Assembly (NCBI GenBank): GCA_036229005.1
Contig: JAZAMN010000050.1
Location: 32,001 to 96,000, forward strand
Origin: Myxococcota bacterium
GTDB lineage: Bacteria; Myxococcota_A; UBA796; CAJQPC01
Direction: 5' to 3'
Length of the DNA stretch: 64,000 nucleotides
The translations under genes were made by a program, and so were the position numbers. The stretch's first letter is position 1, and every line of letters begins with the position of its first letter. This document shows positions 4,029 through 18,525 of this stretch, in pieces. The notes under the pieces were generated by a model. That model had not been told where the DNA came from. It did not search any database and saw only the letters and a program-made list of their open reading frames with translations.

Positions 4029-7000
4029 TTGTTCGAGCCCATTGCCATCGTCGGGCGGGCCTGTGTCCTGCCCGGCGCTCTCAGCCCAGAGCAGCTCTGG
4101 GAGAAGGTCCTCGCGGGCCAGGACCTCGTCTCCAACGCCCCCTCCGGGCGCTGGGGGGTGAGCCGGTCCAAGATCCTCTCCAGCCCTCAAGATCCGCAGG
4201 ACCACGCGTGGTCGGATCGGGGGGGCTACGTCGAGGGCTTCGAGCAGGTCTTCGACCCGCAGGGTTTTGAGCTGAGTGCCACCGAGATCGGTGGCCTGGA
4301 CCCGCTGTTCCAGTGGCTCCTGCACACGGGCCGGCAGGCGCTGAGCGAGGTCCGTGGGGCCCCGCGGAGGCGCACCGGCGTGGTGGTGGGCAACCTGGGC
4401 TTCCCCTCGTCCTCCATGAGCCGCTACGCCGAGACTGTGTGGCTCGGCGATGCGCAGGCCCAGGCGCTTGGAATCCCGAAGGTGGACGCTCGGAACCGTT
4501 TCATGTCTGGGTTGCCGGCGCACCTGCTGGCCCAGGCCCTCGGGCTTGGCGGTCCGGCTTTCGCGTTGGATGCGGCCTGCGCGAGCTCGCTCTACGCGCT
4601 CAAGCTGGCCTGCGACCGTCTGCAGGACCGCGAAGCGGATCTGATGTTGGCGGGGGCGGTGAATCGCTCCGACGACCTGTTCATCCACGTGGGCTTCTGC
4701 GCCTTGAGCGCGATGTCCAAGACCGGGCGGAGCAGGCCCTTCCACGCGCAGGCGGACGGGCTCGTCCCGGGTGAGGGGGCTGGAATCCTGGCCCTCAAGC
4801 GGCTCTCGGATGCCCAGCGGGATGGGGACACCATCCACGGTGTGATCCGAGGGGTCGGCCTGAGCAACGACGGGCGGGGCAGGGGACTGCTTGCGCCCTC
4901 CTCGGCAGGTCAGGTCCGGGCGATGGAGTCCGCGTTCACCCAGAGCGGTTGGACTCCGACGGATGTGACGCTGCTGGAGTGTCACGCGACGGGGACCACC
5001 GTCGGGGACGGCACGGAGCTGGACTCCATGTCCCAGGTCTATGCGTCTTGTCAGCAGCTCCCCATCGGCTCGCTCAAGTCGAACATGGGGCACCTGATCA
5101 CGGCCGCTGGCGTGGCTGGCATCATCAAGGTGCTCGAGGCTATGCGCCACGGGCAGCGGCCGCCCACCCTGCATGTGGAGCAGCCCCATCCCAAGCTGTC
5201 GGGCGGACCCTTCCGGCTGCTGACTGCGGCCGAGCCCTGGGACGGGCCTCGCCGTGCGGGCGTCAGCGCTTTCGGGTTCGGCGGCAACAACGCCCACGTC
5301 CTGCTCGAGCAGAGCCCGTCCCAGGCGCCCAGCGCCGAGCCCTCTCCCAGTGGTCCCATCGCGGTCGTGGGGCTGGGGACCCTGGTCGGTGACACCCAGG
5401 GCCTCGCAGGCTTCTCCGAGGCGTTGGAGTCGGGTGTCGTTTCCAGGCGAGGGGAGCAGGTCGCGCTGCCGCTCAAGCGGATGCGCTTTCCTCCCAACGA
5501 CCTCAAGCAGGCCCTCGGTCAGCAGACCGCGCTGCTTGCTGCGGCGGAGGAGGCAGTCCAGGGGCTCACGCTGCCCCCCGAGAAGACCTCGGTCCTGGTG
5601 GGGATGGGGACCGACCCCAACGTGTGTCGCTATGGCGCTCGGTGGCGGTCCGCGGACTGGGCCCCCCAGCTTGGGATGGAGCTCAGTACGCTCCGAGAGG
5701 CCTTCGTGCCGGTGCTCGAGGCGGCTGGTGTGCTGGGGACGATGCCCAACATCCCGGCCAACCGCCTGAACAGCCAGCTCGACCTGGGCGGCCCCAGCAT
5801 GGTGGTCTGCTCCGAGGAGCTCTCGGGTCTGCGTGCCCTGAATCTGGCGGCGCGCGCCCTGCGCAAGGGGGAGACCGACGCTGCGGTGGTCGGCGCCGTG
5901 GACCTGTGCTCTGACCCCGTCCACACCCGCGCAGCTCTCAGCCTGGGCCAGCGAGAGCCAGGGGGAGACGCCGCGGTGGTCGTGGTCCTCAAGCGCCTGG
6001 AGGATGCGCAGGCAGCGGGAGACAAGGTGCTCGCGGTGCTCGATGAGGCCGATGCCCCACCGCTCAGCCCCGATGGCCTCCGACGCCTGGTAGGACACAC
6101 GCACGCAGCCGAGGGCCTGTTGTTGGCCGCGGCCGCCATCCTGGATTGCATGGAGGGCCGCCGCGAGGGCGCCCTCCTGGACCTTGAAGCCCTGGGAGGA
6201 CAGCGCGAGAGCAGCGTGATCCTCTCCGCGGGCACCCAGCCCATCCCCGAGTACCAGCCCGAGGGGCCGCTGCTGCGGCTCCCGCTGCACTTGCCCGAGA
6301 TTCAGCTTCCCAAGGCCGCTGCGGCCATGGAGCCCCAACCGATGTCCGAGTCCGCGCTCTCTCCCTCCGGTGTCCAGACCATGGCGCCGGCGCCCGTCCT
6401 TCCCTCGGTGATGTCCGCCGGGGCGGAGCCTCCGCGCCCCCCTGTGCAGAAGACGGCGGTGCAGAAGGCCGCTGCGCTCCCGCCGGCTGCCCCGATGCCA
6501 CAGCCCATCGCGCCCCAGCAGCCCGTTGTGCCCCAGGTGCAGGCTCCGGTCGGGGGGGCATTCACTCACCCCCAGGCGGCGCAACTGGCTCAGCAGCTCG
6601 CGGCGCAGCAGCGCATGCTCACCCAGGTCCACCAGCAGTTCTTGGCCCAACAGGCCGAGGTCCAGCAGCGCTTCCTGGGGATGCGTCAGCGTGCCCTACA
6701 GACCCTGGTCGGGGCTGCCGGATCTCCGCTGATGCAGGCGGCCCAGGTGGCAGCCCCCACCCAGGCCCAGAGCGTGCCGACCCCCGCGCTCCACGCTCCC
6801 CGGAGCCCCGCGACCCCGAGCGCCCCCGCCGCTCCTCGCGTGCAGGCTCCCGTGCCGAGCCCGGTCGTGGGGCAGGTGGCCAAGGCGGTGAACCCACCCG
6901 CTCCGAAGGCCCAGGTCCCGCTCGCTCCCGTCCCCGCGAAGGCCCCCGCGCCCAAGCCGGCGCCCAAGGCTGCCGCCAAGGCCGAGCCTGCTGGGTTCAA

Positions 7001-10000
7001 GGACCCCAAGCACCCCTGGCGTACCGATCCGATGGCTCCCCCCGTGCCCTTCCGGGCGCGCCCCAAGGCCGAGGAGCTCCCCGGCCTCAAGCTGGACCGG
7101 GACGGGCTCATGGTCCACGCCGGCGGCAAGATCTCCGAGATCTACGGGGAGCAGTTCAAGCCCCAGGACGACTACGTCCGCCAGTGCCGGATGCCGCTGC
7201 CTCCGCTGCTGTTGGCTGACCGCCTGCTGGGCATCGACGCTGAGGCGGGTTCCATGGGGCGGGGCACCCTGTGGACCGAGACCGATGTGACCGAGGACGC
7301 CTGGTACCTGCACCAGGGACGCATGCCCGCGGGCATCATGATCGAGTCCGGTCAGGCCGACCTGATGCTGATCTCCTACCTGGGCATCGACTTGCAGCAC
7401 CAGGGCGACCGCATCTACCGCCTGCTGGGCTGCACCCTGACCTACCACGACTCGCTCCCGCAGCCGGGCGAGACGCTGACCTACGACATCCACGTGGACG
7501 GGCACGCCAAGCACGGCGACAAGCGCCTGTTCTTCTTCCACTACGACTGCCGGGTCGAGGGCAAGCCCCGCCTGACGGTCCGCCAGGGCCAGGCCGGGTT
7601 CTTCACGGACGCCGAGCTGCTGGAGTCCGGCGGCATCCTGTGGACCGCAGAAGAGGGCGAGTGCGTCGAGAACCCGCGCATGGACGAGCCGGACCTGCTC
7701 ACCACCAAGCGCTCGCTGAGCAACGCCGAGCTGGTGGCCTTCTCGGAGGGGCGCACCTCGGACTGCTTCGGGCCCGAGTTCTATCTGTCTGACGCCCACA
7801 CCCGCACCCCCCGCATCAGCGGCGGCAAGATGCTCTACCTGGACGAGGTCACCGACTTTGTCCCCAAGGGCGGCCCCTGGGGGCGTGGCTACCTGCGCGC
7901 GATCGACAAGGTGCACCCCACCCACTGGTTCTTCGAGGGGCACTTCCACAACGACCCCTGCATGCCCGGCAACCTGATGTTCGAGGGCTGCCTGCAGGCC
8001 ATGGCCGTCTACATGGCGGGCCTGGGCTTCACGGTGGATCGCGACGGCTGGCGCTTCGAGCCCGTGCCCGAGGAGCCCTACAAGCTGCTCTGCCGCGGTC
8101 AGGTCGACCCCAGCTCCCAGGAGCTGGTCTACGAGATCTTCGTCGAGGAGATCATCGCCGGCCCCGAGCCCACCATCTACGCAGACATGCTCTGCACGGT
8201 CGACGGCCTCAAGGCCTTCCACTGTCGCCGGATGGGCCTGCGTCTGGTCCCGAGCTGGCCTCTGGACTCCCGCGAGGACATGCCCGCCGACCACGAGGCC
8301 CGCGGGGTGGTCAAGCAGGCCCCCAGCGCCGCGCTGGAGTGGACCGGTGCGCCCCTCAAGAAGTTGGACACGCCCACCGAGCCCTTCCAGTTCGACTACC
8401 GCTCCCTGCTGGCCTGCGCCTGGTCTCGCCCGTCCAAGGCCTTCGGCCCCATGTACGAGACCTTCGACAGCACCCGCCGCGTCGCGCGCCTGCCGGGCCC
8501 GCCCTACCACTTCATGTCCCGGGTGAGCCAGATCGACGGCACCTTGGGCGGCATGTCCATCGGCGACAAGGTGGTCCTGGACTACGACATCCCCGAGAAG
8601 GCCTGGTACTTCTTGGAGAACGGCGCCCCCACCATGCCCTTCTGCGTGCTGCTTGAGGCGGCGCTCCAGCCCTGCGGTTGGCTTGCGAGCTTTGTCGGCT
8701 CCGCGCTGACCGTGGAGAACGACCTGTTCTTCCGGAACCTGGACGGCACCGGTGATCTGAAGGTGGAGCTGCTCCCGACCTGCGGGACCCTGCGCACCGA
8801 GGTCACCATCACCAACATCTCCCAGTCCGCCGGGATGATCATCGAGTCCTTCAAGGTGGACTGCTTCCTGGAGCACGAGGGCGAGCAGGTCCACGTCTAC
8901 GACCTCAAGACCGTGTTCGGCTTCTTCCCCAAGGTCGCCCTGGACAACCAGAAGGGCCTGCCCATCCTGCCCGAGCACAAGGCTGTGTTCGACGCGGAGT
9001 ACGAGGGTGAGGTGGTCGACCTGGACCGCTACAAGCCCGCTGGCGCCCCCCTGGCCCGGCCCTACCTGCGCATGATCGACAAGGTCACCGGTCGCTGGCC
9101 CGAGGGTGGGCAGGCCGGTCTGGGTGCGTGGCGCGCCGAGAAGGCCGTGGACACCAAGGAGTGGTTCTTCAAGGCCCACTTCTTCCAGGACCCCGTCCAG
9201 CCCGGCTCCCTGGGCATCGAGGCCCTGCTCCAGCTCGCCCAGTTCGCCATGCAGGACCTGGGGATGGACGCCGGCATCGAGCAGCCCCGCTTTGAGCCCG
9301 TCGAGCTCGGCCGCCCCATGTCCTGGAAGTACCGCGGCCAGGTTCGCACCTTCAACAAGCTCATCGGCTCCACCATCGAGATCACCGAGAAGGGCACGGA
9401 CGACGCCGGCAACCCCTTCATTGTCTGCAAGGGCAGCCTGTGGGTCGACGGCATGCGGATCTACGAGACCGAGAACATGGGCATGAAGGTCGTCTCCGGC
9501 GCTGCGGTCAAGCAGCCCGGTGGGGTCGGCCCCGCCCAGATGAGCGCCCCCACCCACGACGTGGTGCTGGACCCCGACGGCGAGCACGCCTGGCTGCGGG
9601 ATCACTGCCCCACCTGGACCGTGCCTGCCGCCCCCATGATGTGGATGGTGGACCGCATCGCCCAGGTGGCGTTCGAGGGCGGGGAGGGCCGCCTGGTCCT
9701 GGGCGTCCAGGACGTGGCCGTCAAGCGCTGGCTGGTCGCGGATGCCCCCACCAAGGTCAGCGCCGCGCTCCGCTACGAGAACGACCACATCCACGTCACC
9801 CTGAGTGATGAGGACGGCGTGGTCTGCACCGGCCGCGCCCACATGGGCTGGGAGCCGCTGGCCGGAGAGCACGGCTGGCCTGCGCTGGAGGCCGCCGAGG
9901 TCCCCAGCCCCTACGCCGCCGGCACCCTGTTCCACGGACCGCTGTTCCAGCTCCAGGAGTCCCTGCGCATGGGCGATGGCGGCAGCTCGGCCGTCCTCCG

Positions 10001-11639
10001 GGTGACCGGCGCGATCGGCTCCCACTGGGACGTCGCGCTGCTGGACGCCGCCACCCACGGCATCCCCCACGACGACCTGAGCCGCTGGAGCGCCGAGATC
10101 CCCGAGGGCATGGTCGCGTACCCCGCGTTCATCCCCGAGCTGCGCATCCACGGCGCCACCCCCAAGCCCGGCTCCGAGATCCGCTGCGAGGTCCGCTTTG
10201 ACGGCTTCCACGGCTCCAAGCAGCTCCCCCGCTTCAAGGTGCAGCTCGTCCAGGACGGCGGCTGGGTCTGGTGCTCGTTCACCCTGGTGGAGAGCCTCTT
10301 CCCCAAGGGCCCCCTGGGCAGCTTCGAGCCAGAAGGCCGGCGTCGCTTCCTGCGGGATCGCAAGTTCGTCCCCGGGCTCTCCTTGAGTGAGGGAGGGGTC
10401 CTCAAGGTGGCCGATGTCGATCGGTCCAACTGGCTCCCCGGGACCGTCGAGACCCTCTACGGGACCGCGGATGCAAGCGAGGTCGCCCTGGCCGAGGCCA
10501 TCGCCGCCGAGGTCCAGGTGCACCCCTACCGGGCCGCCGGCGCGCTGCCCCTGAACCCCATCGAGGCCACCCAGGAGGAGCTGGACGACGGCTGGCGCAC
10601 CACCGCCCGCATCGGCCCCCTCAAGCTGGACCCCGTGGTGGAGTTCTGGTCCGGCGTGTTCGACCGGGACCCTTGGCCCGTCGAGGACCTGTACTACGGG
10701 CTCATCCAGCGCTTTGTGCGCCGGGTGGTCACCCCGGAGCCGGAGGCCCTGGAGGCCGTTCAGGGCCGCAGCCTGCTGTACCTGGGCAACCACCAGACCG
10801 GCGTCGAGTCCCTGCTGTTCTCCATCGTGGCCAGCGGGCTCACCGGCGTCCCCACCGTCACCCTGGCCAAGGCGGAGCACCGCCACACCTGGCTGGGCAA
10901 GCTGATCGCCCACAACTTCTCGTACCCCGGGGTCACCGACCCCCGCGTCATCCAGTTCTTTGACCGGGACGACAAGGCCAGCCTGCCCAAGATCATCGGC
11001 GAGCTGGCAGCGGAGATGGCCGGGCCCGGCAAGTCCGTGATGGTCCACGTGGAGGGCACCCGCTCCCTGAACTGCCGCACCCCCGTGCAGAAGATGAGCG
11101 GCGCCTTCATCGACATGGCCCTCAAGGTCAACGCCCCCATCGTGCCCGTGCGCTTTGTGGGCGGTCTGCCCGCGGCGGACCTGGAGGCCCGCGTGGAGTT
11201 CCCCGTCGGCTTGAGCGCCGAGGGTCAGGAGCCCCCCAAGGGCCAGCCCTTCGCTCACGGCCTGGGACAGCAGGACATCTGGCTGGGCGCGCCCATCCTG
11301 CCCGAGGACATCGCGCACCTGCCCTATGGTGAGCGCAAGCGCATCGTGATCGACGCCATCAACGGCCTCGGTCCCGCCAACGCCGCCGAGGCGCCCTTCT
11401 CCGGCGACCTGGAGTTCGGGGAGAAGGTGGAGGCGTGGCGGTCCAGCACCGGCGCGACCCACGAGCACGCCACCTTGCTGCAGGTGCTGCGTGAGGCCGA
11501 GTCGGTCTGCCCCGAGACCCAGGCCATCCTGGACGGTCTGGATGGCTCCGGCTTCCAGAGCGAGGACAGCGAGGCCGGCGCTTGGCTGGCGGAACTGGCC
11601 CGCCGGCTCTACGGCGAGCAGGGTCCCCCAGTGAAGTAG
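4029..11639 (+). CDS. pfa3: Myxobacterial-type PUFA synthase Pfa3 (KS, CLF, FabA-like DH'/DH x2, PKS-type DH, AGPAT)
   Basis: KS: DAACASS, ECHATGT, GHL. CLF: MPNIPANRL..CSEELSG. FabA-like DH: WFFEGHFHNDPCMPG and WFFKAHFFQDPVQPG. PKS-type DH: WLRDHCPTWTVP. Acyltransferase: GNHQTGVE, VEGTRS, PIVPV. TTG start 3 nt after the upstream stop. Confidence 0.88.
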   Translation: MFEPIAIVGRACVLPGALSPEQLWEKVLAGQDLVSNAPSGRWGVSRSKILSSPQDPQDHAWSDRGGYVEGFEQVFDPQGFELSATEIGGLDPLFQWLLHTGRQALSEVRGAPRRRTGVVVGNLGFPSSSMSRYAETVWLGDAQAQALGIPKVDARNRFMSGLPAHLLAQALGLGGPAFALDAACASSLYALKLACDRLQDREADLMLAGAVNRSDDLFIHVGFCALSAMSKTGRSRPFHAQADGLVPGEGAGILALKRLSDAQRDGDTIHGVIRGVGLSNDGRGRGLLAPSSAGQVRAMESAFTQSGWTPTDVTLLECHATGTTVGDGTELDSMSQVYASCQQLPIGSLKSNMGHLITAAGVAGIIKVLEAMRHGQRPPTLHVEQPHPKLSGGPFRLLTAAEPWDGPRRAGVSAFGFGGNNAHVLLEQSPSQAPSAEPSPSGPIAVVGLGTLVGDTQGLAGFSEALESGVVSRRGEQVALPLKRMRFPPNDLKQALGQQTALLAAAEEAVQGLTLPPEKTSVLVGMGTDPNVCRYGARWRSADWAPQLGMELSTLREAFVPVLEAAGVLGTMPNIPANRLNSQLDLGGPSMVVCSEELSGLRALNLAARALRKGETDAAVVGAVDLCSDPVHTRAALSLGQREPGGDAAVVVVLKRLEDAQAAGDKVLAVLDEADAPPLSPDGLRRLVGHTHAAEGLLLAAAAILDCMEGRREGALLDLEALGGQRESSVILSAGTQPIPEYQPEGPLLRLPLHLPEIQLPKAAAAMEPQPMSESALSPSGVQTMAPAPVLPSVMSAGAEPPRPPVQKTAVQKAAALPPAAPMPQPIAPQQPVVPQVQAPVGGAFTHPQAAQLAQQLAAQQRMLTQVHQQFLAQQAEVQQRFLGMRQRALQTLVGAAGSPLMQAAQVAAPTQAQSVPTPALHAPRSPATPSAPAAPRVQAPVPSPVVGQVAKAVNPPAPKAQVPLAPVPAKAPAPKPAPKAAAKAEPAGFKDPKHPWRTDPMAPPVPFRARPKAEELPGLKLDRDGLMVHAGGKISEIYGEQFKPQDDYVRQCRMPLPPLLLADRLLGIDAEAGSMGRGTLWTETDVTEDAWYLHQGRMPAGIMIESGQADLMLISYLGIDLQHQGDRIYRLLGCTLTYHDSLPQPGETLTYDIHVDGHAKHGDKRLFFFHYDCRVEGKPRLTVRQGQAGFFTDAELLESGGILWTAEEGECVENPRMDEPDLLTTKRSLSNAELVAFSEGRTSDCFGPEFYLSDAHTRTPRISGGKMLYLDEVTDFVPKGGPWGRGYLRAIDKVHPTHWFFEGHFHNDPCMPGNLMFEGCLQAMAVYMAGLGFTVDRDGWRFEPVPEEPYKLLCRGQVDPSSQELVYEIFVEEIIAGPEPTIYADMLCTVDGLKAFHCRRMGLRLVPSWPLDSREDMPADHEARGVVKQAPSAALEWTGAPLKKLDTPTEPFQFDYRSLLACAWSRPSKAFGPMYETFDSTRRVARLPGPPYHFMSRVSQIDGTLGGMSIGDKVVLDYDIPEKAWYFLENGAPTMPFCVLLEAALQPCGWLASFVGSALTVENDLFFRNLDGTGDLKVELLPTCGTLRTEVTITNISQSAGMIIESFKVDCFLEHEGEQVHVYDLKTVFGFFPKVALDNQKGLPILPEHKAVFDAEYEGEVVDLDRYKPAGAPLARPYLRMIDKVTGRWPEGGQAGLGAWRAEKAVDTKEWFFKAHFFQDPVQPGSLGIEALLQLAQFAMQDLGMDAGIEQPRFEPVELGRPMSWKYRGQVRTFNKLIGSTIEITEKGTDDAGNPFIVCKGSLWVDGMRIYETENMGMKVVSGAAVKQPGGVGPAQMSAPTHDVVLDPDGEHAWLRDHCPTWTVPAAPMMWMVDRIAQVAFEGGEGRLVLGVQDVAVKRWLVADAPTKVSAALRYENDHIHVTLSDEDGVVCTGRAHMGWEPLAGEHGWPALEAAEVPSPYAAGTLFHGPLFQLQESLRMGDGGSSAVLRVTGAIGSHWDVALLDAATHGIPHDDLSRWSAEIPEGMVAYPAFIPELRIHGATPKPGSEIRCEVRFDGFHGSKQLPRFKVQLVQDGGWVWCSFTLVESLFPKGPLGSFEPEGRRRFLRDRKFVPGLSLSEGGVLKVADVDRSNWLPGTVETLYGTADASEVALAEAIAAEVQVHPYRAAGALPLNPIEATQEELDDGWRTTARIGPLKLDPVVEFWSGVFDRDPWPVEDLYYGLIQRFVRRVVTPEPEALEAVQGRSLLYLGNHQTGVESLLFSIVASGLTGVPTVTLAKAEHRHTWLGKLIAHNFSYPGVTDPRVIQFFDRDDKASLPKIIGELAAEMAGPGKSVMVHVEGTRSLNCRTPVQKMSGAFIDMALKVNAPIVPVRFVGGLPAADLEARVEFPVGLSAEGQEPPKGQPFAHGLGQQDIWLGAPILPEDIAHLPYGERKRIVIDAINGLGPANAAEAPFSGDLEFGEKVEAWRSSTGATHEHATLLQVLREAESVCPETQAILDGLDGSGFQSEDSEAGAWLAELARRLYGEQGPPVK

Positions 11640-13503: not shown

Positions 13504-14838
13504 TCAGTCCATGTACCCCAAGGCCCGCAGCGCCTCGACCATCTCGGGGGTCGCCTCGAAGCTCCGGTGAGGCGGAGCGGTCGCGTCCCAGGCGCGGAGC
13601 TGCGCCACCATCTGCTCGACCCGCTGAGGGTCCTGGACCACGTGCACGCTGGGCTCCCAGGCGTAGAGCTGCGCCTGCCGCCGGTAGGGCGTGACCACGA
13701 GGCTGTAATCCTGGTGGGTGACCGAGCGCTGGAAGGGGAGGTTGTTCCAGCCCTGACCGTTCTCCAGGCTCGCCGGCTGGGTGGCCTCCGCGAAGCTCGG
13801 GGGCGCCTGCCAGCTCCGCTCTCCCCGCAGGATCGCCGAGGTGTCCTCGCCGTCGCCCAGGTCGCTCTCCCAGCCCAAGAGGCCCAGCACGCTGGGCCCG
13901 ACATCCATCAAGCGGATCGGTCGGTGCACCACGCTCGCAGGCAGCGCCAACTCGCCGCTCCCCCAGAAGATCAGCGGCACGTGCACGATCGAAGGGTCCA
14001 CGTCGGGTCCGTGTCCGAAGGGGCTCCCGCCGTCACTTCCCAGGTGCTCGCCGTGGTCTGAGAAGAGGACGATGAGGGCGGACTCCAGGCGCTCGCGCTC
14101 CCGCAGCCCATCGATCAGGGCGCCGATCTGCTGGTCGGTCCACTGGACCTCCGCCTGGTACAGGCACCGGGCCCGAGCGAGGTCATCGGGGCCCAGGCTG
14201 CCCGCGAACTCCGGCCGGGTCATCGCGATGGAGGTCTCGATCCCCGGCTGGATGGGTCCCTGGTAGGGCTCCGGGCAGGCCTGGTCCCGCAGCGCGGTGG
14301 GCGCCGAGTTCCAGGGGTTGTGGGGGTCGTAGTAGTGGACGAACAGGAAGGTCGGCTGGGCCTCGCCCTGCGCGTCGATGTGCCGGAGCGCCGCCTGGGT
14401 GACCTGGTCTGCTCCGACCTCGTGGATGCCGGTCTTGAGCTGCAGCTCGTGGTTGTCGTAGACGCGGAAGCCGCGCGAGAGGCCCATCTCCGGCTGCAGC
14501 GCGGTGCTCCCCACCACAGCGATGGTGTCCCAGCCCTTGGCCGCGAAGCGCTCCTGGAGGAGGGCGAGGCCCCCGGGTACCGGGAAGCCGTTGCGCACCA
14601 CCGTGGACCCGTGGCTCTCGCGCCCGCTGAAGACCCCGGTGTGCGAGGCCAGCGTGGTCGCGCTCTGGGAGAGGCCCCGCTCCACGCGCACGCCCTGGGC
14701 GGCGAGAGCGTCCACGTTCGGGGTGCTGGGCGGTCCCCCGTAGGCCCCCAATGCGTCGGCGCGGGTGGTGTCCATGCTCACGAAGAGCACCAGGGGAGGG
14801 GGGCTCTGACAGGCCAGCCAGGTGGTGATGAGCAGCAT
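13504..14838 (-). CDS. Sulfatase-like / alkaline phosphatase superfamily hydrolase, probable lipoprotein
   Basis: Signal MLLITTWLAC; SMDTTRAD, TPNVDALA, TLASH at the nucleophile position, HYYDPH, SDHGE, HVPLI, LRALGY. Confidence 0.8.
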   Translation of the reverse strand: MLLITTWLACQSPPPLVLFVSMDTTRADALGAYGGPPSTPNVDALAAQGVRVERGLSQSATTLASHTGVFSGRESHGSTVVRNGFPVPGGLALLQERFAAKGWDTIAVVGSTALQPEMGLSRGFRVYDNHELQLKTGIHEVGADQVTQAALRHIDAQGEAQPTFLFVHYYDPHNPWNSAPTALRDQACPEPYQGPIQPGIETSIAMTRPEFAGSLGPDDLARARCLYQAEVQWTDQQIGALIDGLRERERLESALIVLFSDHGEHLGSDGGSPFGHGPDVDPSIVHVPLIFWGSGELALPASVVHRPIRLMDVGPSVLGLLGWESDLGDGEDTSAILRGERSWQAPPSFAEATQPASLENGQGWNNLPFQRSVTHQDYSLVVTPYRRQAQLYAWEPSVHVVQDPQRVEQMVAQLRAWDATAPPHRSFEATPEMVEALRALGYMD

Positions 14839-14859: not shown

Positions 14860-16113
14860 ATGTCCTTCGACGCCGTCACCACCGCGGAGCTGCCCTCGCG
14901 GCAGGTCACCACCCTCCACCTCTTTCGCCACGGTCAGGTGGAGACGGGCGGGCTGCGGCTGGCCTACGGACACTCGGATCTGCCCCTCTCCATGCAAGGT
15001 GAGGACCAGCACGCCGCCCTGGAGCGCTTCGCCGCGCGCCTGCCCGCTCCGGACGGGGTGCTCAGCTCGGATCTGCGCCGCTGCATGCACTTGGCCGAGG
15101 GGCTGGGCAGGGTGTCCTCGCTGGCGCCCCGCTGCCATCCGGAGCTCCGTGAGCAGGACATGGGGGAGTGGGAGGGCCAGGCGTGGGGGGCGCTCTCCAG
15201 CCGCTCCTCCCAGGCCATCCACGACTACTGGGACGACTATGTGGGGGCCCGGCCGCCAGGTGGCGAGAGCCTCCGCGATCTGGACGCGCGCGTATGGGAC
15301 TGGTGGCAGGGCATGCAGGACGAGCTGGCCGGCGGGACCTGGTGGGTGGCGGCGCACATCGGCGTGATCCGCGTGCTGCTCTGTCGGCTGATGGGGCACC
15401 CGCTGGACGAGGCCCTGCGCTTCGCACCCGCCCGCGGCTCCCACACCAAGCTCCTGCTCGCCGAGGCCGGCGCGGTCCTGGAGGTCCTGGGAGAGCAGCC
15501 GCTGCCCGTCCCCAAGGCCGAGTCGGGGCCCCTCAAGATCGCCCTGAGCGGTAGCGCGGGGGTGGGAAAGAGCACGCTTGGGCAGGCCCTGTCCAAACGC
15601 CTGGGGGTCCCATTCATCCCGGAGGGCATGCGGGCGCGGCTGGAGGGCGGTCTGCAGCTCCACCGGCTGGATCGAGGGCAGCTCCGGGACCTGATCCACA
15701 GCCTCTGGGACGAGCAGCTCGAAGCGGAGCGGCGCGCCGTCCGGGACCACGGGGGCTTCGTCGCGGATCGGGGGGCGGCGGACTTCGCGGCCTTCTATCT
15801 GCACTACCGCTTCATCGAGGCCCAGGACGGGACCGCCGCGTTCGTCTCCCAGGCGCTCGCCCATGCCCGCGGCTACACCCGGACCGTGGTGCTCCCCTGG
15901 GGCGCGATCCCGCTGCGCTCGGACGGGGTGCGCAGCAGCAATCCCTGGCTACAGCGGCACTTCCAGGCGGTGGTCGAGGGCGTGATCCACCGGGAGGTCC
16001 AGCGCGAGCGGGTCCTCTGGCTCCCCACCGAGCGGCGCTCCCTGCGCGAGCGGGTGGACTGGGTGTCGAGCTGGCTGCCTGCTGGATTCGCGCTCAAGTC
16101 CCGCCCCCGGTGA
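14860..16113 (+). CDS. Histidine phosphatase (CobC/PGM-like) fused to a P-loop NTPase (AAA_28/NadR-kinase-like)
   Basis: Phosphatase: LFRHGQ, SSDLRRC, LREQDMGEWEG, PGGES, AHIGVIR. C-terminal: GSAGVGKST and FVADRG. ATG at 14860. Confidence 0.8.
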   Translation: MSFDAVTTAELPSRQVTTLHLFRHGQVETGGLRLAYGHSDLPLSMQGEDQHAALERFAARLPAPDGVLSSDLRRCMHLAEGLGRVSSLAPRCHPELREQDMGEWEGQAWGALSSRSSQAIHDYWDDYVGARPPGGESLRDLDARVWDWWQGMQDELAGGTWWVAAHIGVIRVLLCRLMGHPLDEALRFAPARGSHTKLLLAEAGAVLEVLGEQPLPVPKAESGPLKIALSGSAGVGKSTLGQALSKRLGVPFIPEGMRARLEGGLQLHRLDRGQLRDLIHSLWDEQLEAERRAVRDHGGFVADRGAADFAAFYLHYRFIEAQDGTAAFVSQALAHARGYTRTVVLPWGAIPLRSDGVRSSNPWLQRHFQAVVEGVIHREVQRERVLWLPTERRSLRERVDWVSSWLPAGFALKSRPR

Positions 16114-16143: not shown

Positions 16144-18525
16144 ATGCCCCGACTGAGCCTTTGCCTCATCGCCAAGGATGAAGAGGAGATGCTGGAGGAC
16201 TGCCTGCGCTCGGTGCGCGGCGTGGTGGACGAGATCATCGTCTGCGACACCGGCTCCAGCGACGGCACCCGCGAGCTCGCCACACTGCTCGGGGCCCAGG
16301 TCATCGAGCATGTCTGGGAGGAGGACTTCTCGGCGGCCCGGAACGCTGCCCTCACCGCTTCGACCGGTACCCATGTCCTCATCCTGGACGCCGACGAGCG
16401 GCTCACCCCTGGCGCCGGCGAGGTCATCCTGGCGGCGATCCAGGACCCCACGCTGGATCTGGGCATGCTCCCCCTGCACAACGCGGAGCGCCTGGACGCG
16501 CCGGTCGACCAGGTGCTCAGCGGGCTCGCTCGGCGCGGCGACCCGGTGGACCTGCCGCGCCTGTTCCGTCGCACCCCCGACCTGCGCTGGGAGGGGGCCA
16601 TCCACGAGTCGCCGAACACCTGGCTGAGCAGCGCGCCCCGCCGGATCCGGCGCCTGGAGGCGCCCATCCTTCACCTGGGGGCGGTCCCCAGCCTGCGGCA
16701 GGCGCGGGGCAAGCGGGAGCGCAACATCAAGCTGCTCCAGGCGCGCGTGGCGCAGGAGCCGGGCAACCCCCAGGTCTACGCCTACCTGGCCGGAGAGCTG
16801 CTCCACGAGGGGCGGAGAGAGGAGGCCGAGCGGGTGATCGAGGCCGGCTGGGCCGCCGCGGGCAGGCTGGGGGATGGGCCTCGGCCCGTGCTGGTTCAGC
16901 TCGTGACCCTGCGCGCCCACACCTTGCTGGAGCAGGGCCAGGTGACCGAGGCCCTGGCGGCGCTGGGCCAGGCGCGGGAGTGGAGGGTCCAACACCCCAA
17001 CGTGGACCTTCTGGAGGCGCTGGCGCTGCGCCAGCTCGACCCCCCCGCGCGGTCTCGGGCGGCCCAGCTCCTGGAGCGCTGCCTGAACTGGAAGCAGGGC
17101 CTCGCGCAGGAGCCGATCCCCGGCGCTCTGGGCTGGCTCTCGGCTCAGCACCTGGGCGAACTCCGCCTGGAGCTGGGCGAGCTGGACGCGGCCGAGCTGG
17201 CTTTCGGCCGGGCGCTGCAGGAGAAGCCGGATCTGGAGGGGCCTGCCCTTGGAATGGCCGAGCTCGCGCTGCGTCGGGGGGATGCTGCGGCGGCCCTGAG
17301 GCTGGTCGAGCCTTGGCTCCCGCTGGAGAAGCCCGACCCTTGGGTCCTCGCCGCCGCGAGCTGCGCGGCCCTCGGAGAGCCCGGCGACATGCAGGCGCTG
17401 GTCCGTCGCGCCGTGCAGCTCGCGGACAAGGGCTTCGTCGGGCGCCACCGGGCTGACTGGCTCAAGGAGCTGCTGGTCGAGGCGGACCTGTACGCCGGAA
17501 AGCCTCACCCCGGGCCCGGAGTCGTCGGCCGCCTGGGCGCGCTGGCCTCCCGGCTGCCCAACCGGGACGAGCGGGCCATCCACCCCGAGGGCGCCGAGCG
17601 CGTCGCCGTGAACCTGGTCCGGGCCGGCCACCCCGAGCTGCTGGAGCCCTTCTTCGAGCCGCGGGCCGACTCGCTGCTCCCGGGGCTCGCCATGCGCGTC
17701 AAGCTGGCGCTGGCCGAGCAGGGGATCGTCGTCGAAGACGATGGGCAGGCGGAGTTCGTGTTCATCGGAGGCGCGGGCCGCAGCGGCACCACGCTGTTCC
17801 GGGCCATGCTCGGCGCCCACGGCGGCATCCACTGTGGGCCGGAGCTCAAGCTGGTCCCCATCATCTCCGGGCTCCGCGAGCAGTGGGTGCGCACCATGGG
17901 CAAGGACCTGCAGGAGGCCGGCGTCGGAACCGAGGTCCTGGACGAGGCCGTGCGCTCCTTCATCACCGCGCTGCTGCACGGTGGCGCGCCCGAGGGCATG
18001 CGGGTCGCGGAGAAGACCCCCCACAACCTGCTGCACACGGCGCTGCTCGGGCGGCTCTTCCCGCGGGCCCGCTTCATCCACGTGGTCCGAGATGGCCGGG
18101 CGGTCGCGGCCTCTCTGGTCCGGCAGCGCTGGGTCGATCCCGCGACGGGGAAGCCCATCTGGTATTGCCAGGATGTCGAGGGGGCTTCTCGATACTGGGT
18201 CGAGGTCGTCTCCACCATCCGGCATCAGGCGGCGTCCGTACCGGGTCGCTACCTGGAGGTCCGATACGAGGAGCTGGTGCAGTCTCCCGAGGACACCATG
18301 CGCCGGGTGCTCGCGTTCCTGGGGGAGCCCTGGGACGCCGCGGTGCTCGCACACCACGAGGCCGACACCCGCCTGTCCTCGCGTGAGGCCAGCAGCGCTG
18401 CGGTGGCGGGGGCGCTCAGCGATGGCGCTCTGCGCAAGTGGCGTACCCAGCTCTCCGACGCGGACCTCAGCCGCTTCGACCAGCGCACACAGAGCGTGCT
18501 GGCGGAGCTGGGGTACGCGAGCTGA
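16144..18525 (+). CDS. GT2 glycosyltransferase + TPR + sulfotransferase (TPST-like) fusion protein
   Basis: GT2: LSLCLIAKDEE, DTGSSDGT, DFSAARN, LDADE, WEGAIHE. Helical TPR-like middle. Sulfotransferase: FIGGAGRSGTT (5'-PSB), EKTP, VRDGRAV (3'-PB), RYEELV. Confidence 0.88.
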   Translation: MPRLSLCLIAKDEEEMLEDCLRSVRGVVDEIIVCDTGSSDGTRELATLLGAQVIEHVWEEDFSAARNAALTASTGTHVLILDADERLTPGAGEVILAAIQDPTLDLGMLPLHNAERLDAPVDQVLSGLARRGDPVDLPRLFRRTPDLRWEGAIHESPNTWLSSAPRRIRRLEAPILHLGAVPSLRQARGKRERNIKLLQARVAQEPGNPQVYAYLAGELLHEGRREEAERVIEAGWAAAGRLGDGPRPVLVQLVTLRAHTLLEQGQVTEALAALGQAREWRVQHPNVDLLEALALRQLDPPARSRAAQLLERCLNWKQGLAQEPIPGALGWLSAQHLGELRLELGELDAAELAFGRALQEKPDLEGPALGMAELALRRGDAAAALRLVEPWLPLEKPDPWVLAAASCAALGEPGDMQALVRRAVQLADKGFVGRHRADWLKELLVEADLYAGKPHPGPGVVGRLGALASRLPNRDERAIHPEGAERVAVNLVRAGHPELLEPFFEPRADSLLPGLAMRVKLALAEQGIVVEDDGQAEFVFIGGAGRSGTTLFRAMLGAHGGIHCGPELKLVPIISGLREQWVRTMGKDLQEAGVGTEVLDEAVRSFITALLHGGAPEGMRVAEKTPHNLLHTALLGRLFPRARFIHVVRDGRAVAASLVRQRWVDPATGKPIWYCQDVEGASRYWVEVVSTIRHQAASVPGRYLEVRYEELVQSPEDTMRRVLAFLGEPWDAAVLAHHEADTRLSSREASSAAVAGALSDGALRKWRTQLSDADLSRFDQRTQSVLAELGYAS

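Follow-up and report, generated by a model that had tools for sequence, protein, structure and literature searches.

GmaR of Listeria transfers N-acetylglucosamine to flagellin (PMC9638930), FlmG binds flagellin through its tetratricopeptide repeats (TPRs) (PMC7591256), and the combination of a family 2 glycosyltransferase (GT2) domain with TPRs has been used for predicting flagellin glycosyltransferases in Clostridium (PMC13317340). For tyrosylprotein sulfotransferase (TPST), catalysis and the alpha2-alpha4 helices that form the dimer have been described (PMC5562738, PMC10951654), and in TPST1, whose numbering is used here, the peptide is contacted by R102, R106, W114, R123, T199 and R285, of which R123 and R285 bind the acidic residue at position -1 (PMC5562738). 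The gene studied here (16144..18525, + strand) encodes a 793-aa GT2-TPR-sulfotransferase fusion, P0001, and lies in a window of 64,000 nucleotides of a Myxococcota bacterium (GCA_036229005.1, contig JAZAMN010000050.1, positions 32,001 to 96,000); positions refer to this window. Co-occurrence, gene neighbourhood and the match to GmaR point to flagellin as the substrate. We infer that P0001 would O-glycosylate flagellin and sulfate the added sugar in the cytoplasm before export, a reading that we hold with about even confidence and that takes in the enzymatic steps, the substrate, the sugar and the sulfate acceptor alike.

The reading frame of P0001 was open throughout from an ATG with a third-position GC content (GC3) of 0.91, and a long open reading frame (ORF) on the opposite strand was its shadow. 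The first-pass annotation of this DNA had described a GT2-TPR-sulfotransferase fusion, and the ORF list, Pfam and an AlphaFold model confirmed an intact gene in which all the sequence motifs quoted at that time were present. Pfam placed GT2 at residues 5-104 (PF00535, E 9e-18), TPRs at ~328-426 and Sulfotransfer_3 at 539-731 (E 7.9e-37). The AlphaFold model, built from a 28-row alignment, had a mean pLDDT of 93.4 and a pTM of 0.83, with helical repeats at about residues 182-450. All domains were on the + strand. The GT-A (GT2) domain of the GmaR/SunS type (residues 1-204, 16144..16755) carried the motifs DTGSSD (35), LDADE (81), GAIHES (151) and LHLG (176). It was followed by TPR helical repeats (about residues 186-430, 16699..17433; Pfam TPR_19 and others), which by analogy with FlmG are likely the substrate-binding arm, and by a helical linker (about residues 434-530, 17443..17733) that was gapped in the alignment in several family members, including P0010, P0012, P0017, P0022 and P0026. 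The C-terminal part (residues 533-793, 17740..18522) was a TPST-like sulfotransferase (ST) domain, predicted to depend on 3'-phosphoadenosine 5'-phosphosulfate (PAPS). No hydrophobic stretch was seen by Kyte-Doolittle analysis (19-residue maximum 1.15, N-terminus 0.85), which was consistent with the proposed lack of a signal peptide, no dedicated predictor having been run. Foldseek with the full model returned ThuS/SunS and TPST1/2 together at the top.

The best solved match of the GT2-TPR part in the PDB was GmaR (22ao) with an E value of 3.8e-25 over residues 2-204, followed by SunS (6e-14). These relatives support the earlier view that two enzymes are joined in one cytoplasmic protein whose GT2-TPR part is of the kind that glycosylates proteins. 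With full P0001 as query, 77 of the 182 genomes of the class gave a match at E ≤1e-40. A flagellin-family match was found in 75 of these 77 genomes compared to 61 of the 105 genomes without the gene, and after stratification by family the 75 observed stood against 60.9 expected, a value reached in 0 of 200,000 draws. Comparison of flagellin-positive and flagellin-negative genomes showed the gene in 17/17 and 0/5 of family f1, 15/16 and 0/6 of f5, and 6/7 and 0/3 of f2, while the remaining testable families showed no significant association with flagellin. One of the two exceptions (G689, 91% complete, neither flagellin nor FlhA found) had only an ST-only relic with broken PAPS motifs (L204:6784-7374).

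Flagellar structural genes were present in 5 of the 107 fetched loci (4 genes in 4 genomes). In G691 the gene immediately upstream of fliC-fliD-fliS, and on their strand, was a full fusion, and in G677 fliC was immediately followed by a GT2-TPR gene; other family genes were 5.4 kb from fliE in G706 and approximately 3 kb from flgB in G700. Random windows of the genome of P0001, searched with the structural-gene queries, gave a mean of 0.65 and P(≥4) = 0.005. This genome encoded flhA, fliA, flgFGHIKL, two fliC, fliD and flgBC, with the flagellar cluster and two short flagellins on contig C3. PAPS synthesis was represented by cysD/cysNC and a separate adenosine 5'-phosphosulfate kinase, and approximately 14 kb separated cysD and cysNC (L207:13849-16712, - strand, C3) from where the flagellar cluster ends. 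Two tandem proteins of 396 and 398 aa, in which an N-terminus like that of lipoproteins is combined with flagellin-like helical domains in duplicate, were also seen in this genome (G000:C47:80200-82700, L209), together with a 392-aa flagellin-like protein (G000:C59:77300-78850, L208) whose large insert resembles a vWA domain. A complex prediction of residues 1-530 with the flagellin of the genome scored 0.07 against a mark of 0.32 and was uninformative either way.

A number of observations weigh against flagellin and against a sulfated sugar on it. Full fusions, GT2-TPR paralogs and ST-only genes are taken together in the co-occurrence count, and kin genomes are not independent, so that its p values overstate the association. 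In genome G047 (89% complete, 940 contigs) a GT2-TPR gene was intact, and no match to flagellin or FlhA was found. Without a filter on the queries, the mean of the neighbourhood null was 3.85 (P = 0.54), a result of the many other places in the genome of P0001 that FliA and FlgJ match; the strict structural-gene filter was set after this null was seen, and none of the observed matches was FliA or FlgJ. In addition, 102 of the 107 loci, including the window itself, were not near flagellar genes, and the P0001 gene is on contig C50 and the flagellar cluster on C3. The ST was intact in only 2 of the 4 flagellar-linked genes (G691 and G706; G677 is GT2-TPR only and the ST of G700 is decayed), and the flagellar link is therefore stronger for the glycosyltransferase than for the ST. 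The exposure of the variable flagellin segment at the surface is our presumption from general flagellin structure. The nearest characterised ST relatives sulfate Tyr and not sugars. Finally, three full fusions in one genome (G298) were in operons with small beta-rich and lectin-fold proteins and without flagellar genes.

These G298 fusions were translationally coupled and placed between Ser/Thr-rich, beta-rich ORFs of 110-136 aa and ORFs of 262/264 aa. The products of the larger ORFs have a fold close to that of ConA-type lectins and of carbohydrate-binding modules from phages (best Z 16.7, rmsd 2.9, 184 aligned) and resemble Uroviricota proteins by Atlas features (0.93, a weak recognition). 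Such cassettes would suit a general enzyme that glycosylates and sulfates non-flagellar proteins, for instance these beta-rich and lectin-fold ones, a possibility which we rate as improbable. A related small ORF approximately 2.4 kb upstream of the G090 copy and the orphan position of most family copies speak for it as well. However, neither cassette family was found in the genome of P0001, and the distribution in the class was patchy, with the A4 family in 5/182 and the A3 family in 16/182 genomes, compared to 77 genomes with the enzyme family. Of the five cassettes in G298 (L079-L081, L160, L161), three include a GT2-TPR-ST gene, and no such gene was seen in the two further G298 cassettes or at the other A3/A4 loci. 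The cassette proteins were rejected as a general substrate on these grounds, and the G298 copies may have been recruited to another substrate. Like cassettes were observed in G676 (L162, L163), and in other genomes the small family is represented by lone members upstream of large ORFs. In a prophage-like region (L164:8400-20000, G015:C188), one protein at a tail-end position belonged to the 262-aa lectin-fold family, with identities read from the sequence.

Search of residues 533-793 against the PDB showed that TPSTs were the closest solved relatives of the ST domain, with E values of 1e-39 for tick TPST (8w5z), 1.6e-36 for human TPST1 (5wrj) and approximately 6e-34 for TPST2 (3ap1), compared to 7e-13 for 4gox and 2.6e-12 for CurM (4gbm). 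The Foldseek TM score by target was 0.85 with TPST1 and 0.67 with CurM. The likeness to TPST beyond the PAPS motifs that had been proposed from the sequence was confirmed, since the match takes in the LQEAGV..EVLDEAVRSF helices. A no-filter HMMER scan of 1.84 billion representatives with the ST recovered 32,750 related sequences at E ≤0.001. Among the best 150, approximately 20 share the GT2-TPR-ST architecture, 18 are eukaryotic TPST-like proteins, and a wider group of prokaryotic proteins is also represented. Two relatives were already labelled 'protein-tyrosine sulfotransferase' by JGI, and an ESM Atlas search with the ST matched generic Sulfotransfer_3 clusters only. A profile was built from the 18 eukaryotic TPST-like proteins and searched among proteins of 794-2265 aa, of which 7,990 candidates were scored. 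After eukaryotic TPST-containing proteins and one four-domain actinobacterial ST, three proteins of the GT2-TPR-ST family ranked first (236-253 bits), with generic TPR-sulfotransferases at no more than approximately 210 bits for the whole protein and mostly at 110-160. Per domain, the family scored up to 245 bits and the wider group at most 197.

A FastTree phylogeny of 270 domains (420 extracted domains reduced at 70% identity) joined TPST and the GT2-TPR-ST family at 0.998. IQ-TREE analyses under LG+C20+F+G4 joined them at 95/83 with 76 rows, where the bootstrap was not fully settled and one wider-group row fell inside, at 94/89 with 43 rows, and at 98/91 with 39 rows without the generic outgroup. 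The TPST rows formed their own 100/100 clade with the family outside it, as sister or paraphyletic base, and the generic TPR-Sulfotransfer_3 proteins (GMPRSG-type) formed a separate 100/100 clade that did not include the ST of P0001. By approximately unbiased tests, the alternatives were not rejected, whether TPST was joined to the generic clade (p 0.107) or placed outside the two nearer prokaryotic groups (p 0.053), and monophyly of the GT2-TPR-ST family was not rejected either (p 0.4). The trees have TPST on a long stem and cover sets without RaxST, SslST and CurM; their rows were chosen and groups named after the FastTree result was seen, with sampling centred on the query. Overall, the ST was unusually close to TPST and did not group with generic sulfotransferases, and a sister relation of the family to TPST is favoured by the sequences, though not proven, with no donor or direction of transfer shown. 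P0001 itself, judged by its sequence, is not a TPST member, as it has no anchor, falls outside the clade and does not keep the peptide cleft. Two unnamed or EukProt TPST-like proteins with N-terminal hydrophobic segments (P0159 and P0066) were placed within the TPST clade, a hint that TPST of the animal type is not confined to animals.

Related STs were also observed in halophilic Bacillota (P0057, P0082, P0047 and P0051, from Halobacillus salinus, Salinibacillus kushneri, Salibacterium and Tuberibacillus), fused to GT2-TPR, GSCFA or pyruvyl-transferase domains. A metagenome scan for the gene context of the Halobacillus and Salinibacillus fusions gave two weak TPR matches only, and flagellar genes were near none of the 12 top matches for more distant TPST-like STs in another order.

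All PAPS-binding and catalytic residues of the ST domain were intact in P0001, with R546, E567, K624, R649, S657 and S750 in the positions of the 5'-phosphosulfate-binding loop, the 3'-phosphate-binding motif and the TPST1 residues R79, E100, K159 and S286. The 5'-phosphosulfate-binding loop GGAGRSGTT (17767..17793, +) contained R546 (TPST1 R79). The catalytic base E567 (E100) and the alpha2-alpha4 helices common to TPST, with W581, L589, A592 and G593, were at 17842..17982 (+), K624 (K159) and the 3'-phosphate-binding motif RDGRAVAAS with R649 and S657 at 18010..18114 (+), and the EASS motif, in which S750 matches S286 and A749 replaces the peptide-binding R285, at 18385..18396 (+). The retention of the catalytic Arg, Glu and Lys reported by the first-pass annotation was thus correct, but it is no mark of Tyr specificity, because 113 generic TPR-sulfotransferases have the same residues (R 113/113, E 113/113, K 112/113); R79, E100, K159 and the 3'-phosphate-binding Arg/Ser were conserved in every group compared, and this sign of specificity was ruled out. 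The residues W114 (TPST 11/16, family 37/41), A127 (14/16, 33/41) and G128 (16/16, 37/41) of the TPST dimer helices were shared mainly by TPST (16 rows) and the family (41 rows). These helices were present in the model.

The acceptor pocket differed from that of TPST. Out of the six TPST1 peptide contacts P0001 keeps only W114, with R102 replaced by Lys (K569; K in 37/41 family rows), R106 by I573 and R285 by A749, a gap at T199-I200, and R123 falling on K587/D588 depending on the alignment (mostly P or A in the family). T101 and D160 were not kept either. R285 was variable among the eukaryotic TPST-like rows too (R in 7/16), and its absence therefore weakens a Tyr acceptor without excluding it. 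G545 of P0001 stands where TPST has a Pro before the catalytic Arg, a Pro that we assume to have a role in the Tyr pocket. A TPR-ST paralog of 431 aa in the same genome (L001:7592-8920, - strand, C24) keeps this Pro, as TPST does.

The sulfate acceptor had been proposed to be Tyr or the added sugar, and of these the sugar came out as favoured and Tyr sulfation by P0001 as less likely. The loss of most TPST contacts for acidic peptides supports a sugar, as does the composition of the variable flagellin segment, which was 24% Ser/Thr and had Tyr in 4 of 35 sequences and in neither of the two canonical flagellins of the P0001 genome. With flagellin as the substrate to which co-occurrence, neighbourhood and the GmaR match point, sulfate on the added sugar is favoured over Tyr. 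The GT2-TPR part could nevertheless, as is likely, glycosylate flagellin while the ST is a true Tyr (or Ser/Thr) protein sulfotransferase acting on flagellin or another flagellar protein. The grouping of the ST with TPST, the retained W114, A127-G128 turn and basic residue at R102, the variability of R285 in eukaryotes and the existence of bacterial peptide sulfotransferases with different peptide-binding parts, RaxST and SslST (PMC11143521), are in line with this, and the flagellins here carry a conserved Tyr in an acidic context (DDEERTY, 'ERxY'). We regard it as unlikely, as R106, R123, T199, T101 and D160 are not kept, Tyr is rare in the variable segment, and the 'ERxY' Tyr is kept in 16/18 rows without the family as well as in 12/12 with it, so that it was rejected as an enzyme-linked sulfation site.

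A search of 401 genomes of the phylum with the ST gave matches at E ≤1e-35 in 16, of which 15 belong to the order of P0001 and one more to the class. A total of 111 family ORFs were found in the 107 fetched loci: 35 full fusions, 56 GT2-TPR genes, 14 of which ran off the end of their locus, 9 TPR-ST and 10 ST-only ORFs, and one truncated GT piece. In GT2-TPR paralogs the ST may be replaced or accompanied by a methyltransferase or by additional GT2 domains, or no such domain is present; L038, L039, L040 and L052, for example, were extended by further GT2 domains or an N-terminal methyltransferase. Such swapping is as expected for exchangeable glycan-tailoring domains. The failure of 8 of the 35 full fusions in a three-motif test for an intact ST, and the 42 uncut family ORFs with GT2-TPR only, could indicate that the ST is a non-essential or decaying appendage of a protein working only as a flagellin glycosyltransferase. 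This is very improbable, given the intact PAPS-binding and catalytic residues of P0001, the 27 of 35 fusions that pass the test and the position of the ST as the most conserved part (70% identity to the ST of P0004 compared to 63% over the full length).

The wider prokaryotic group of related STs includes fusions to GSCFA, polysaccharide pyruvyl transferase, GT9 and FkbM domains, and the C24 paralog, whose ST is 49% identical to that of P0001, is located among glycosyltransferase-like genes (read from sequence). An ST that sulfates a lipid, a polysaccharide or a small molecule, in a fusion derived from a glycan or glycolipid pathway unrelated to proteins, would fit these associations. However, the GT2 domain is of the GmaR/SunS type with a protein acceptor, no polysaccharide cluster was seen around the orthologs inspected, and family presence follows flagellin, which makes a non-protein acceptor quite unlikely.

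For flagellin glycosylation followed by sulfation of the sugar, the likely course would be that the TPR arm binds a flagellin monomer, that the GT2 domain attaches a sugar to its Ser/Thr, and that the TPST-like domain, through R546, E567, K624 and S750, moves sulfate from PAPS onto that sugar before export. A broader proposal joins such flagellin sulfation by one fused enzyme in this lineage with the ST family as the sister group, or the source, in bacteria of the eukaryotic TPSTs. On this view, tyrosine sulfation in animals would derive from a bacterial, likely myxobacterial, flagellin-modifying enzyme by loss of GT2-TPR, gain of a membrane anchor and formation of a basic cleft for acidic Tyr peptides. 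We consider this proposal tentative and on the whole doubtful. Other eukaryotic pathways have been argued to come from myxobacteria (plasmalogens, PMC13012113), and TPST-annotated bacterial sequences were noted in a plant survey (PMC12506393).

No conserved operon was found around the P0001 gene beyond same-genus synteny, and phage origin was rejected, as a viral scan gave a single distant match with 31% identity. A histidine-phosphatase/AAA_28 fusion of 417 aa (14860-16113, +) lies 30 bp upstream on the same strand and was not seen beside the orthologs inspected. A sulfatase gene (13504-14838, -) is located 1.3 kb upstream, and sulfatase-like ORFs were also near a few orthologs (L015, L083). 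Further upstream, a 2536-aa polyketide-synthase-like protein (4029-11639, +) presumably represents a PUFA-synthase subunit.

If the favoured reading is true, it would add to bacterial flagellar surface chemistry a sulfated glycan made by one polypeptide, which is suited to expression together with flagellin in a laboratory strain. The origin of TPST would also gain a specific neighbour among bacteria that is open to testing. With its different acceptor pocket, a soluble domain resembling TPST would show the residues that turn a hydroxyl sulfotransferase into a tyrosine one. Among the titles and abstract starts covered, mostly outside subscription journals, no paper was found on a GT2-TPR-ST fusion or on enzymatic flagellin sulfation. 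Likewise, no title or abstract start named a myxobacterial source of TPST.

Comparison with GmaR of Listeria monocytogenes showed the same N-terminal order, with TPRs behind a GT2 domain that bears the DxD and HE motifs, in a host that likewise has flagellin. However, the C-terminal domain of GmaR is an anti-repressor and that of P0001 a sulfotransferase, and the family gene is usually outside the flagellar cluster. The glycocin S-glycosyltransferases SunS and ThuS (7msn, 7msk) share the GT2-TPR fold and were the top Foldseek matches (E approximately 1e-13). P0001 is not a SunS member, as it scored 57.7 bits against a TIGR04195 cut-off of 350, and the surroundings of the orthologs inspected showed neither a conserved precursor peptide nor an exporter. 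FlmG of Caulobacter crescentus is a soluble enzyme that O-glycosylates flagellin and binds it through its TPR region (PMC7591256), but it has a GT-B fold, N-terminal TPRs and no sulfotransferase, and transfers pseudaminic acid.

For the ST domain, RaxST of Xanthomonas and SslST of a lanthipeptide system are bacterial peptide sulfotransferases that depend on PAPS and have been modelled on TPST or are near it in structure (PMC6637879, PMC11143521). Both are stand-alone enzymes in peptide clusters, and P0001 is set apart from them by their descriptions, not by their sequences; raxX-raxAB-like neighbours were not noticed in the loci inspected, where no RaxA/RaxB search was made. Generic bacterial TPR-Sulfotransfer_3 proteins belong to the same Pfam family and have the same catalytic residues, but they do not have the L..AG helix turn (gap in 113/113), and their mean identity to TPST is 25% compared to 34% for the family of P0001. 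TPSTs are the nearest characterised relatives of the P0001 ST in sequence and trees, sharing the fold, the catalytic R/E/K/S and the alpha2-alpha4 helices with W114 and A127-G128. In contrast to the type II anchor of TPST in the Golgi lumen, P0001 is a predicted cytoplasmic fusion with no membrane anchor and a GT2 domain at the N-terminus, in which the R106, R123, T199 and R285 contacts are not kept. Bacterial peptide sulfotransferases were already known, and P0001, as read from its sequence, is likened to GmaR in its N-terminal part and to TPST in its C-terminal part.

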